From: a virus
DNA length: 64,000 nucleotides
Virus record (IMG/VR): IMGVR_UViG_3300006754_000009
Coordinates: 25,264 to 89,263 of that record
Reading direction: 5' to 3' (one strand)
Within the stretch, counting starts at the first letter, position 1, and each line of letters begins with the position of its first letter. Both the position numbers and the translations under genes were made by a program. The notes beneath the pieces were generated by a model that saw only the letters and a list, made by a program, of their open reading frames with translations, had not been told where the DNA came from and did no database searches. Shown one piece after another: positions 51,034-59,437 of the stretch.

Positions 51034-52614
51034 ATGAAAAAAAGACTATTTCCATTACTCATCGCGTTAGCAGCATTAGCGGTATCTGGGTCAGCAGCCT
51101 TCTATTCTGTCTTCGGATTAAGTAAATTATTCGCGGGTGCTTCCACACAAGTAATAATAATGGCTGGTTCACTTGAATTCGCCAAATTAGTGGTAGCATC
51201 ACTACTATATCAATATTGGGGTACCATAAATAAGGTATTAAAGAGCTATCTTATGATAGCATGTTTTGTTCTAATGGTAATCACTAGTGGTGGTATTTAC
51301 GGATTCTTATCTGGAGCATATCAATCGACAGCAACTCAATCAGAACTACTTGACAAATCACTTTTAATTCTTGAACAGAAACAAGTTAGGTTTGAAGAAA
51401 CAAAAGAAGACTTAACAATTGAGAAGACTCAAATAAATAAATCAATTTCAGATTTAAGAGTATCATTATCTAATCCACAGCAAGTATCATGGTTTGATAA
51501 AAATTCTCAAACAGTAATTACATCAACATCTAGCTCGGCAAGAAGAGCATTACAGGCAGAATTAAAAACTTCAATTACAGATAGAGATAATATAAATCTA
51601 AAGTTAGAAGCTGTATTAGATTCTATAGGTAAAACAGATATGGCTTTATTAGAAAAAGAAATATCTAATGAAGACCAAAGAGAATTAGGTCCTCTTAAAT
51701 ATCTAGCCAACACAACAGGATGGCCAATGGATAAGGTTGTTAATTATTTTTTACTTTTAATTATATTTGTATTTGACCCATTAGCAATTGCACTCGTGGT
51801 AGCTGCGAATATGGCATTTGCACAAATAAAGAAAAAAGACCCCGAAGTTATGATGTCAGTCCCAGAAGGAATGGAATTTAATACCCCCTACCCCATTGAA
51901 ACAGAAGAAGTAGAAGATACAGATGAAATGATTATTGAACAAGAAATAATCGACGATGACTACTTTAATGATTTAGAAGCATATATAAAACACACCCAAG
52001 AAGAAGACATAGAAATAGTAACTTACCCTACATTTGTAGAAAAACATTATCCAAGAGAAGAAACTGAAGATATAGTTTCTCCTATAGAGGAGAAAGAAGA
52101 AATGGAAGAATCTAGAGTAATTAAAACAGAGGATGATTTGGATGAAAAAGAACTAGAAGAGTTGAGTACACAAGTGGGAATTCTGGAAAAAGAAATTGAT
52201 GAAGAAGAGAAAGATAAAATAAACCCTACCGAAAAAGACCTTGAAAAATTAGCCGAAGCTCTTAAGATTGTTAATAAGAGTGTAGAACTAGACGAAGAAG
52301 TTCTAGAAGATAAATTAGATTTGGAAGAATTTTCTTTAAAAGAAAATGACAGTGAACAACGAAAACAATTATATGATTTATTGGTGGCAAATGGGTACGA
52401 TAAAGCTTTTCTTAGAAAAAGTGACAGCACCTACCAACCAAACGACACCGAAATAAAGAATAACGAAACCATAGAAGAGGACGAAAGATACAGTGAAGAT
52501 AATGTAGAAGAATATAGATTAACCGACACAACACAAACCTTAATAACTAAAATCACTAATAAAGACATAGCCGATGAGACAAAAACACACCTTAAATACC
52601 GAGGAAGAAAATAA
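51034..52614 (+). CDS. membrane protein with coiled coil and long acidic C-terminal tail
   Basis: Three N-terminal TM segments, coiled coil, LLIIFVFDPLAIALVVA TM segment, E/D-rich tail. Confidence 0.8.
   Translation: MKKRLFPLLIALAALAVSGSAAFYSVFGLSKLFAGASTQVIIMAGSLEFAKLVVASLLYQYWGTINKVLKSYLMIACFVLMVITSGGIYGFLSGAYQSTATQSELLDKSLLILEQKQVRFEETKEDLTIEKTQINKSISDLRVSLSNPQQVSWFDKNSQTVITSTSSSARRALQAELKTSITDRDNINLKLEAVLDSIGKTDMALLEKEISNEDQRELGPLKYLANTTGWPMDKVVNYFLLLIIFVFDPLAIALVVAANMAFAQIKKKDPEVMMSVPEGMEFNTPYPIETEEVEDTDEMIIEQEIIDDDYFNDLEAYIKHTQEEDIEIVTYPTFVEKHYPREETEDIVSPIEEKEEMEESRVIKTEDDLDEKELEELSTQVGILEKEIDEEEKDKINPTEKDLEKLAEALKIVNKSVELDEEVLEDKLDLEEFSLKENDSEQRKQLYDLLVANGYDKAFLRKSDSTYQPNDTEIKNNETIEEDERYSEDNVEEYRLTDTTQTLITKITNKDIADETKTHLKYRGRK
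52357..52419 (+). repeat. 63-nt segment repeated in inverted orientation at 58817-58879
   Basis: 50/63 nt identical by hand alignment; both copies encode QRKQLYDLLV[AS]NGYD[KR]AFLRK. Confidence 0.9.
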
Positions 52615-53128
52615 CCAAATCCTTTTATGTAATACTCATAGACCAGCAAAAGATTTTTTAAGAGGGCTCAAATTAAGAAATAATGGTAAACATAAAAAAA
52701 TACCTAATTATTTTATAGAAAAAGACGGTAATGTACACCATTTGAATAAAAATGACATCACCCCACAATACTTATCTGGTTATTGTGATTCCGGTGTTAC
52801 AGTGATTGCACTAGAAAATTTAGGGTGGCTTAAAAGAAGAAGTAATGACGGTAAGTTTATTGACTGGTTAGGTAATATTTATATTAATAAGGCACACGAG
52901 AAGAAATGGAGAGGTAAATTATTTTGGGACGAATATACAGATAAACAAACTGAATCAACTTCAGAACTTATTAAAAATATCTGTAAAAGAAAGAACATAC
53001 CTAATGAGTTTATAGGCCATAATGTATTAGTTGAAGGTGTTGAAAATTTTAGAGGGATAGTCTCTAGAAGTAACTATAATGAATATTGGACAGATTTAAA
53101 TCCGTCATTTAATTTTGAATTACTATGA
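52574..53128 (+). CDS. N-acetylmuramoyl-L-alanine amidase-2 / PGRP-like fold protein, probably degenerate
   Basis: PNYFIEKDGNVH, VIALENLGWL, YTDKQTESTSELI, WTDLNPSF; the Zn-binding His residues appear replaced. Confidence 0.7.
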   Translation: MRQKHTLNTEEENNQILLCNTHRPAKDFLRGLKLRNNGKHKKIPNYFIEKDGNVHHLNKNDITPQYLSGYCDSGVTVIALENLGWLKRRSNDGKFIDWLGNIYINKAHEKKWRGKLFWDEYTDKQTESTSELIKNICKRKNIPNEFIGHNVLVEGVENFRGIVSRSNYNEYWTDLNPSFNFELL

Positions 53129-53658
53129 AAAGAATAAATAAAATAAAAAATGTGGTTGATTATAATAATCGACAATACGATGAGATGAAATCATTACTAG
53201 ATAAGTCTAGAGTGATATTTGAACAAAGAAAAGAAACAGACACTTTAGATAGAGACATAGAAAAGGTAGAAGAATATGAAGTTTCTAGTGGAAAAATTGT
53301 GGTACATGGATACACTACTCCAGACGTGACACTAACTGACGAAGAAAAAAATACCTACCAAGAAACTATGGACGATTTTATTGAACAAGTTTCAGATTTA
53401 GTAGATTATAACGCATTAAACATATATGAAAATAATGTTGAATGGTCTGGTATGTTAGTTAAATTTGACACAGAATTTTATTACACTGTGGGTGAAAGAA
53501 ATGGTGTTTATTTGAGCGGGACTATGATGAAAGTCGATGAAGAAGCCTTAGAAATGTTAAATAACTTAAAAGATTACTATCAAATATTTTCAGCAAAATG
53601 GGCAAAAGTATTAGCAGAGAGAAAATCTACCAATAAAATGGAAGAAGAAAACGAATAA
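53125..53658 (+). CDS. hypothetical phage protein
   Basis: 177-aa ORF, ATGA overlap with the upstream gene. Confidence 0.7.
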   Translation: MKRINKIKNVVDYNNRQYDEMKSLLDKSRVIFEQRKETDTLDRDIEKVEEYEVSSGKIVVHGYTTPDVTLTDEEKNTYQETMDDFIEQVSDLVDYNALNIYENNVEWSGMLVKFDTEFYYTVGERNGVYLSGTMMKVDEEALEMLNNLKDYYQIFSAKWAKVLAERKSTNKMEEENE

Positions 53659-53659
53659 T

Positions 53660-58005: not shown

Positions 58006-58455
58006 ATGACACTATACGAAGAAATATTACAATTTGATGAATTTTTTACTAGCATTAGAAGACATGATGACTTTCTAGTGTTTGACTTAAAGTTACCATT
58101 AAACTGGGAAGATAAAAAGATTCTCACTAGCCGAGGAGATAAAATTCAGATGAAAATAGGAACTCAGAACCAAACACATAAAATAGTTTCATTTTTCACG
58201 TTATTTAACGAGGAAAGTACTTCTTTACTCATAGCCGAGATACAAGCTATTATAAAATGGAATAAAGATATAGAAGAAAAAAGTACCTTATTAAATATGA
58301 AGATGATGGAATTAAAGAAAATGTTTTCAGAGAACAATGTAGATTCTTTACGAGAATTAGAATTTAATTTCACCCCAAAAATGACATTCAATGAAAAAGG
58401 AGAAAAAGCAGAAGAAGGAAGCCTGGTTGCGACAAGAGATATTAAAGGACAATAA
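58006..58455 (+). CDS. hypothetical phage protein
   Basis: 149-aa ORF in operon. Confidence 0.7.
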   Translation: MTLYEEILQFDEFFTSIRRHDDFLVFDLKLPLNWEDKKILTSRGDKIQMKIGTQNQTHKIVSFFTLFNEESTSLLIAEIQAIIKWNKDIEEKSTLLNMKMMELKKMFSENNVDSLRELEFNFTPKMTFNEKGEKAEEGSLVATRDIKGQ

Positions 58456-58606
58456 GGACATCCTAGAACATAAGAAAAAAACAATAGAAGAGATTAAAAA
58501 AGTAGGGTTGGACACTTTTTTAAACAATAAAAAACTAATACCTAAGGACTCTACAAAGAAGAAAGAAGGATTATGGAAGAAAATCAAAAACAGTTTAAAA
58601 TTTTAA
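58391..58606 (+). CDS. small basic hypothetical protein
   Basis: 71 aa, overlaps both neighbours. Confidence 0.55.
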   Translation: MKKEKKQKKEAWLRQEILKDNKDILEHKKKTIEEIKKVGLDTFLNNKKLIPKDSTKKKEGLWKKIKNSLKF

Positions 58607-58812
58607 GTGATTGTGCACAGATTGCAGAACTGTTAAAGAATAACCCTAATATCAGTAGTTCCCAAATCAACCTTCACATTCCCCACAATACATTCATAGA
58701 GGTTTTACATGAGATAGAAGAATTTGTAAAGGTAAGAGTAGACCTATCACAACCTACCGTATCATTAAAGATGAATGAGATTGAGTTCATCTTTCACAAA
58801 TCTAATAAGTAA
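58573..58812 (+). CDS. hypothetical protein
   Basis: 79-aa ORF. Confidence 0.6.
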   Translation: MEENQKQFKILSDCAQIAELLKNNPNISSSQINLHIPHNTFIEVLHEIEEFVKVRVDLSQPTVSLKMNEIEFIFHKSNK

Positions 58813-59437
58813 ATTGTTTTCTTAAAAATGCACGGTCATAACCATTAGACACCAATAAATCATACAATTGTTTGCGTTGGACCGTATCGTTATCCCTAAC
58901 AAATAAACAATCATAACGACCATTATTTAAAAACTCCAATTCGATAAGACCTAATAACCTTAAAGCGTCGGAAACCGTCTTTAAACTAAAAAGATTAAAA
59001 ATTTCATCTTTTTGAACAATAACCTTATTATTAAGACTAAACACCTGTTTAAATTCAGTATCTGATAGGTAAGAAGATATAAAGTCACCAAAACTTATTT
59101 TAGACTTAGTATTGTGGTCGTATATACGTTCTTCTTTCCAGTATGGAAGTAATTTAATTATGTGGTAACTAGAGTCACCCAACGATATTTTTTTAGTACG
59201 GCCTAAAGAATCTTTTACAAAAATTGTTTTATCTGATTGTTCAGTAGTGATTATTGCAAGCTCAAACATTGTTTTTTTACGTGAAATATATTCTGTAATG
59301 AATTTAGGCTTTTTTTCTTCAATAAGTTTATTATATTTCTTTAAAATACTTTTTTTACTGTTGGAAGAAAAAAATACTTTATTTCTTTCACCATTTTTAA
59401 ATAAAACGATTTTATATTTATTTCTATTATAAGTCAT
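58802..59437 (-). CDS. hypothetical protein
   Basis: 211-aa ORF, the longest here, with codon style like the other genes; its C-terminus is shared with the 51034 protein. Confidence 0.75.
   Translation of the reverse strand: MTYNRNKYKIVLFKNGERNKVFFSSNSKKSILKKYNKLIEEKKPKFITEYISRKKTMFELAIITTEQSDKTIFVKDSLGRTKKISLGDSSYHIIKLLPYWKEERIYDHNTKSKISFGDFISSYLSDTEFKQVFSLNNKVIVQKDEIFNLFSLKTVSDALRLLGLIELEFLNNGRYDCLFVRDNDTVQRKQLYDLLVSNGYDRAFLRKQFTY

Follow-up and report, generated by a model that had tools for sequence, protein, structure and literature searches.

A candidate docking hairpin in the acidic tail of a marine phage membrane protein, apparently copied from another protein of the same phage lineage

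We have analysed a 64,000-nucleotide stretch of viral DNA (positions 25,264 to 89,263 of IMG/VR record IMGVR_UViG_3300006754_000009; hereafter the window), in which two genes on opposite strands encode nearly the same 21-residue peptide. One copy lies in the acidic tail of a 526-residue membrane protein, and the other close to the end of a 211-residue basic protein, which we call the donor (coordinates are given in Table 1). Our conclusion is that the peptide in the membrane protein is an old, selected transplant, a reading that the sequence comparisons support well. As an explanation of the whole, we think it reasonably probable that part of the donor gene was duplicated and then kept as a docking hairpin in the tail of the membrane protein. 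The origin, direction and age of the transplant, the selection on it and its predicted secondary structure are established by the comparisons and models set out below.

The two copies agree at 19 of 21 residues and at 50 of 63 bases, as counted by script. Nine codons differ, seven of them synonymously (for R, L, G, Y, D, A and L) and two by replacement (A/S and K/R). All of these figures, and the conservative nature of the two replacements, had been given in a first-pass annotation of the stretch made from the sequence alone, and were recovered here by translation and by script. The same annotation placed the second copy at the C-terminus of the 211-residue protein, which is right in that it lies near the end, yet four residues (QFTY) come after it. 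It also described the two genes as unrelated, and this holds: BLASTP of one whole protein against the other returns one segment of 28 residues (21/28 identical, 27/28 positives, E 4e-12), and found no similarity outside it. Using the donor's last 41 residues as the query, blastp-short matches 26–29 residues at 72–83% identity in the proteins P0123, P0124 and P0125, the match between the donor and P0124, a relative of the membrane protein, being one of 29 residues at 83%. Exactly two copies of the peptide occur in the whole 89,263-base contig, as judged by regular expression in six frames. This is a single viral contig with 33.4% G+C and an estimated completeness of about 28%.

To which of the two proteins does the peptide belong? 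For each family we examined 120 listed relatives, those of the membrane protein being its 120 best. The motif stands at the same C-terminal place in every one of the 120 relatives of the donor by a looser regular expression, and in 116 of them by a strict one. Of the 120 on the membrane-protein side, 3 have it (the protein of the window itself, P0124 and P0125), a result with which blastp-short at E<=10 agrees. In 51 related viral loci no membrane gene carries the motif, and in 11 of these it is found only in the gene for the 211-residue protein, some 6–9 kb downstream of the membrane gene. A search with residues 429-470 of the tail, covering 5.8 billion proteins of 289-921 residues, had two matches only, the protein of the window and P0124, and a degenerate DNA pattern for GYDKAFLRKxD found no match in viral contigs. 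Because the motif is universal among relatives of the donor and rare among those of the membrane protein, we take the direction of transfer to have been from the former gene to the latter. Judged by these comparisons, the peptide is native to the 211-residue protein and a lineage-specific insert, confined to one narrow lineage, in the membrane protein. The transplanted module proposed by the first-pass annotation is thus borne out, as is the lineage-specific distribution of the insert that it had suggested looking for.

The source of the copy was the same lineage's own gene for the 211-residue protein. Over 29 residues, the three inserts share 21, 24 and 21 identities with the genome's own donor, compared with family means of 15–18, and the next-best matches, P0004 and P0006, are the closest relatives of that donor. 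Since the likeness in P0124 begins at F-[LV]-[KR]-D-N-D-T, which belongs to the donor's last strand, about 30 codons must have been copied. A form of the membrane gene that lacks the insert also exists. In a contig from run X6, position 52269 is joined to 52514 by 28 other bases, and the tails of insert-less homologues pass from ...LNI directly to YSED or YNDD.

Next, we consider age and selection, which we read from the 21 shared codons by the method of Nei and Gojobori. There are 8.5 synonymous differences over 12.7 sites (a proportion, pS, of 0.67) and 4.5 non-synonymous differences over 50.3 sites (pN 0.089), and the corrected ratio between the two copies, a measurement that the first-pass annotation had proposed, is about 0.06. 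When 13 random substitutions were placed on the donor sequence in 20,000 runs under each of two base spectra, the mean was about nine residue changes, and under neither spectrum did any of the 20,000 runs leave two or fewer. The pS between the copies is similar to the whole-gene pS (0.58–0.69) of orthologues of the 211-residue protein that are 66–76% identical, and the pN is about half the value that these orthologues show for the 21 codons in question (0.14–0.21). Given the high pS and the low pN, we take the copy to be old, not recently homogenised, and unusually close to its co-resident parent.

Comparison of the three carriers leads in the same direction. Their proteins are 70–78% identical in a three-way alignment (64–72% by BLASTP), and 19 of the 20 positions of RKQLYDLLVxNGYDKAFLRK are unchanged among them. 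The nine residues that precede this core, and that correspond to a strand and loop of the donor, have diverged (SLKENDSEQ, FLKDNDTTQ and FLREGDGGS), and K is fixed in all three carriers where the donor has the invariant R202. The neutral decay of one copy that the first-pass annotation had named as the opposing outcome is not seen, the core being kept and the flanks diverged, and its proposal that selection acts on the peptide finds support in the codon counts, the simulation and the three-carrier alignment alike.

It might be argued that the segment has no function and was left behind by a recombination accident, or that it is an artefact of assembly or gene conversion, given that phage genomes are mosaic and that this tail tolerates many insertions and deletions. 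We find this hardly credible. Saturated synonymous sites together with kept residues exclude recent conversion, recent accident and neutral drift, and in the three diverged carriers the flanks have decayed around a core that is kept. Nor is there any sign of the assembly chimera against which the first-pass annotation had warned. The insert is spanned by a 941-base contig in run X3 with 0 differences and by a 361-base contig in run X5 with 3 differences; it is held by P0124 and by P0125, and the latter has three near-identical cluster mates (P0392-P0394) from other assemblies. The two copies have 79% of their 63 bases in common, a likeness too low to confuse an assembler, and this excludes a mis-join.

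In the donor, the peptide is part of a folded domain. An AlphaFold2 model of the 211-residue protein has a mean predicted local distance difference test score (pLDDT) of 78.8, with values of 81–91 for the blocks over residues 171-200. It consists of an N-terminal hairpin and helix, a beta-rich core, and then a strand (177-180) and two helices (185-197 and 202-206), and the core peptide is the terminal helix-turn-helix of this model. Residues Q187, R188, K189, L191, Y192, L195, G199, R202, L205, R206 and K207 are invariant among 59 aligned relatives, and the pattern QRKxLYxxLxxxG[YF]x[RK]xxL[YR][RK] is kept in members of the family that are as low as 21–47% identical. The protein has 297 close relatives, nearly all of 211 residues and all from marine viral or metagenomic data; at 50% identity the family forms 242 clusters, of which the full-length ones are nearly all of about 200–250 residues.

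Database searches with the donor gave little. Residues 98-182 of the model align by VIA-align to FERM-F3, PTB and PH domains with Z of 5.0–6.6 (root-mean-square deviation 2.4–4.7 over 62–92 residues), scores that fall under the chance level of about Z 8 for that program. Foldseek found no match at E<=0.001, and neither Pfam nor PHROGs has a match to the protein. Pfam searches on 73 members of the family gave scattered weak matches only, a profile search of the PDB gave a single match at E 0.35, and the ESM Atlas held nothing usable. By tblastn there was no match in 50,697 phage records, and no relatives were found in GTDB genomes. Separately, we observed six short proteins (P0337, P0362, P0363, P0378, P0336 and P0381) that carry the last 45–80 residues of the family behind unrelated N-termini, one of which is ankyrin-like and one selenophosphate synthetase-like as judged by eye. 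Each is a single sequence from a contig of 573–1,870 bases. They may be chimeras or have miscalled starts, and we do not count them as further transplants.

The recipient is of a different character. Its hydrophobic segments span residues 4-29, 40-59, 65-95 and 234-265, and they are followed by a tail (residues 263-526) with an isoelectric point (pI) of 4.23 and 82 D+E against 34 K+R, so that the first-pass annotation's description of a membrane protein with an acidic tail is accurate. AlphaFold2 predicts helices at 2-32, 37-60, 67-84, 88-144, 167-216 and 232-263, which give the N-domain a long helical loop. Most of the tail, including residues 412-438 and 459-526, has pLDDT below 50. The sequence MKKR at the N-terminus and KKK after the fourth hydrophobic segment indicate, by the positive-inside rule, that the tail is probably cytoplasmic.

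The N-domain of the membrane protein appears, from the searches made, to represent a phage-only family that is very abundant in ocean data: 7,993 of the 8,000 candidates scored there are homologues at E<=0.01. Relatives in cultured large phages are found in Flavobacterium phage immuto (44.6% identity), Pelagibacter phage Mosig and Xanthomonas phage XacN1. Pfam has no match to the whole protein at E<=0.01 or to residues 1-269 at E<=10, PHROG has none either, and in the ESM Atlas only viral clusters named 'hypothetical protein' were matched. We also noted that the N-domain (51034-51831) is 75–89% identical in many viral loci (L004-L031) that lack the other 11 window genes tested; in L006 it is 89% identical, with none of those 11 genes in common. 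Such identity across otherwise different loci reflects either transfer between phage backbones or extreme constraint.

The tail varies in length among relatives, and contains short conserved modules (EDYFxDLExYI, LTYPQF, KELEELS, KDLEKLA, RLTDTTQTLI and, at the end, YKGRK), between which lie acidic linkers that change fast. No other tail module was found outside the membrane gene by regular expression, and when ten tails were compared with the whole contig by tblastn, the matches listed consisted of the known peptide match and low-complexity alignments. A further module, RM[DNE][IV]IGQNGN[DE]G[LIE]HY, occurs in the membrane-protein tail of 16 of 51 loci, distant ones included (L002 at 11111, L007 at 10961, L010 at 11021 and 13 more), and in P0125, P0126, P0136, P0170 and P0199; the tail in this genome lacks it. 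Because this module is patchy across loci and absent here, we suggest that tail modules are gained and lost.

Within this tail the insert is modelled as a helix (440-452), a turn and a second helix (457-460), the same elements as in the donor. Its blocks have the highest pLDDT of the tail (72 for 441-450 and 60 for 451-460), compared with 28–49 for their neighbours. On this model, the insert would be a helical island in a disordered acidic tail. The peptide itself is basic, with 5 K+R, 2 D+E and a pI of 9.8.

Our preferred explanation of these results is as follows. About 30 codons, specifying the C-terminal strand and the helix-turn-helix (donor residues 178-207), would have been copied in frame into the region of the acidic tail, by a partial gene duplication that took place long ago in a single phage lineage. 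The strand-and-loop part would since have decayed, while purifying selection would have held the 20-residue helical hairpin nearly constant, as an island, presumably folded on binding, in a floppy tail that already bore other short conserved modules. The hairpin would be a docking element, by which the membrane protein may engage what the C-terminus of the 211-residue protein engages. The engaged partner could be a third factor, from the phage or the host, or the body of the 211-residue protein itself, and it would be recruited or sequestered at the inner membrane. We consider a docking element the simplest reading because the copy keeps the hydrophobic face and the basic residues without a domain to pack on. 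The membrane topology, the binding and the partner are the parts of this scheme that we infer.

Several points weigh against this explanation. The model of the membrane protein is of low confidence overall, with a mean pLDDT of 52.6, and the cytoplasmic placement of its tail has the positive-inside rule as its sole basis. Selection on the membrane copy, considered by itself, is drawn from three protein types, and with synonymous sites saturated the duplication cannot be dated. Finally, searches of Pfam and PHROGs, and of the PDB by profile for the donor, gave no annotated relative of either family.

The insert has much in common with short linear motifs and molecular recognition features. Like them it lies inside a disordered region (pLDDT below 50 around it in the AlphaFold2 model), and like them it is a conserved island between fast-evolving flanks, as the 19 of 20 positions kept in three carriers illustrate. 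Such features are also acquired by viral proteins (the subject of PMC10694346), and with them the insert shares a presumed folding on binding. It differs from classical viral mimicry, in which motifs of 3–10 residues resemble those of the host, in that it derives from a protein of the same phage and is a helix-turn-helix of 20–30 residues. The string RKQLYDLL was not found in published articles (supplements aside), and the search listings for short linear motif mimicry in phages contained no description of this case. Peptide modules are known to be shuffled; the conversion of a fragment of a folded domain into a motif-like island, from a source in the same genome, is uncommon.

In phage T4, the gp43 polymerase, gp33 and gp55 carry similar C-terminal tails that bind the gp45 clamp. 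There too, unrelated proteins of one phage bear a similar short peptide for a common partner. The T4 tails, however, are short motifs that show no evident common descent and have a known partner, whereas the insert is a true copy of 29–30 residues at 72–83% identity. Furthermore, the T4 motifs are terminal, while the insert comes from a folded domain and has been placed inside a disordered tail.

One special case of docking is that the copy binds the 211-residue protein itself, either displacing or pairing with its hairpin or docking on its PH/PTB-like core, in which event the membrane protein would anchor or inactivate the 211-residue protein at the membrane. All residues of the hydrophobic face that would pack in the donor (L191, Y192, L195, F204 and L205) are retained in the copy, a segment that lacks a domain on which to pack. 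Residues V196, N198, D201 and A203, which vary in the family, are the same in the copy and in the co-resident protein despite saturated synonymous change, and pN is lower between these paralogues (0.089) than between orthologues (0.14–0.21). The charges are also suited to such an interaction, the donor having a pI of 9.6 and the tail one of 4.2. However, the donor's own hairpin would compete in cis, and a shared third partner explains the likeness at the free positions equally well. A prediction of the complex between the full 211-residue protein and tail residues 424-475 scored 0.00, which is no verdict and speaks neither for nor against binding. On balance we think direct binding of the donor rather unlikely.

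Alternatively, the hairpin may bind membrane lipid or nucleic acid, so that the copy folds the tail onto the membrane or holds nucleic acid there. The peptide is basic and has hydrophobic residues, the donor peptide lies at a C-terminal end, and membrane-targeting helices are often found at the C-terminal ends of proteins. Yet its hydrophobic moment is low (0.14–0.37 for helix 1, with a maximum of 0.55 for any stretch of 11 residues), and the 82 acidic residues of the tail would repel both DNA and anionic lipid. We consider this improbable.

We were also led to consider host-protein mimicry, and in particular mimicry of the tail of FtsZ. As described in PMC4117426, the E. coli FtsZ tail (DYLDIPAFLRKQAD) is a docking hub that binds ZipA, FtsA, MinC, ZapD, ClpX and SlmA, with I374 and L378 critical. 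The 211-residue protein ends in ...GYDRAFLRKQFTY, sharing AFLRKQ near the C-terminus with the E. coli tail, and the membrane copy, like the FtsZ tail, is carried on a long linker that is disordered; the phage and FtsZ peptides are both short, helical, basic and hydrophobic, and stand close to a C-terminus or within such a linker. If the hairpin imitates this tail, both phage proteins would compete for FtsA, MinC and the like, and so disturb cell division. The D-I-P half of the tail, including I374, is however absent, the positions of I374 and P375 being D and R/K in the phage peptides. Distant members of the 211-residue family read L-Y-[RK] rather than F-L-R-K, and it is important to note that the likeness to AFLRKQ was picked out among many possible motifs. 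With AFLRKQ the only element in common and the core consensus (an acidic residue, I/V and P ahead of x-F-L-R-[KR]) absent, we do not class the peptide with the conserved FtsZ tails, and we judge it very unlikely that the hairpin imitates one. A broader form of the same idea seems to us just as far-fetched, namely that the AFLRKQ helix imitates a peptide by which host proteins dock on a hub, and that a soluble decoy and a second one, tethered flexibly to the membrane and encoded next to the wall-hydrolase gene, jointly capture a host division or envelope factor, with effects on takeover or on the timing of lysis.

Host proteins were searched in five Flavobacteriia genomes, chosen because the nearest cultured phage infects Flavobacterium. 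The 35-residue C-terminus of the donor had no match better than E 0.64 in them, and all five of their FtsZ tails differ from AFLRKQ, a point that counts against FtsZ mimicry only for a flavobacterial host. Independently of the phage, we observed that these five FtsZ proteins (L176-L180) are long open frames of 551–674 residues, with an internal PAYKR[RQL]G (PAFKRR in one) and an extension that ends in NSFLHDNVD (NNSFLHDNVD in four of the five). The ending looks like a second conserved terminal peptide past the usual tail.

Table 1. Positions in the window of the two genes, the shared peptide and the neighbouring genes
Feature	Position	Strand	Basis and remarks
Gene for the 526-residue membrane protein	51034-52614	+	Open reading frame; residues 1-266 four-transmembrane N-domain, 263-526 acidic tail
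Core peptide, membrane copy	52357-52419	+	Translation QRKQLYDLLVANGYDKAFLRK; residues 442-462 of the 526-residue open reading frame
Transplanted segment	52330-52419	+	BLASTP, blastp-short and three-way alignment; residues 433-462, homologous to donor residues 178-207
Lineage-specific tail stretch holding the insert	52270-52513	+	Replaced by 28 other bases in an insert-less relative
Gene for the 211-residue basic protein (donor; putative phage-only family)	58802-59437	-	Open reading frame; pI 9.64
Core peptide, donor copy	58817-58879	-	Translation QRKQLYDLLVSNGYDRAFLRK; residues 187-207 of the 211-residue open reading frame
Donor segment, residues 178-207	58817-58906	-	AlphaFold2 secondary structure; followed by QFTY and the stop codon
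Phage sigma-70-type factor gene	50215-51012	+	Pfam Sigma70_r2, r4 and r1_2; directly upstream of the membrane gene
Amidase_2 (peptidoglycan hydrolase) gene	52574-53128	+	Pfam PF01510, E 6.3e-7
dnaJ-like gene	59438-60442	+	Pfam DnaJ, DnaJ_C and DnaJ_CXXCXGXG; its ATG abuts that of the donor gene

The neighbourhood of the membrane gene offers some guide to its role. The open reading frame of the Amidase_2 gene starts 41 bases ahead of the membrane-gene stop (overlap 52574-52614), and this overlap suggests that the two are translationally coupled. The order sbcC, sigma factor, membrane protein and Amidase_2 is kept in 13 loci, and the last three genes keep their order in 2 more (15 in total). The wall-hydrolase neighbours raise the idea of a holin or other membrane protein of a lysis cassette. 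Immediately upstream of the Mosig relative of the membrane protein is a glucosaminidase gene, and in phage immuto an annotated endolysin and holin are found 4–5 genes upstream of the relative there; immuto thus has a separate holin. It is possible that the membrane protein acts in envelope events or in the timing of lysis. The position after a sigma factor gene raises the idea of an anti-sigma factor, for which neither Pfam nor PHROGs gave a match, and the N-terminus is a transmembrane helix rather than a soluble domain.

Other features of the window were observed in passing. The start codons of the donor and dnaJ-like genes, on opposite strands, abut with no spacer (CAT followed by ATG, 59435-59440), and the ends of tblastn matches place the same abutment in L001 (18808/18809), L002 (18003/18004), L003 (17740/17741), L007 (17376/17377) and L041 (18032/18033). 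Since the start codons abut, the promoter of each gene would lie inside the other. A DruA-like protein (60753-61928; Pfam PF14236, E 4.6e-23) keeps 84–91% identity among related loci, against 28–84% for the majority of its neighbours; this conservation appears unusually strong for a phage-borne gene that resembles those of defence systems. Two adjacent small open reading frames (53980-54288 and 54312-54632) begin with nearly the same leader, MKKIKLTEKDLTEIIQKVVKEQ and MKKIKLTEDELTKIISKVIKEQ.

If the explanation we prefer is right, a short binding peptide in this lineage came from a folded protein of the phage's own, and was neither made from random sequence nor stolen from the host. It would be a clean example, datable in principle, of how such a peptide arises. 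The peptide links two abundant and uncharacterised families of uncultured marine giant phages, of which the membrane family has thousands of variants in the ocean. Should the partner prove to be a host factor, the phage would possess soluble and membrane-tethered copies of one decoy.

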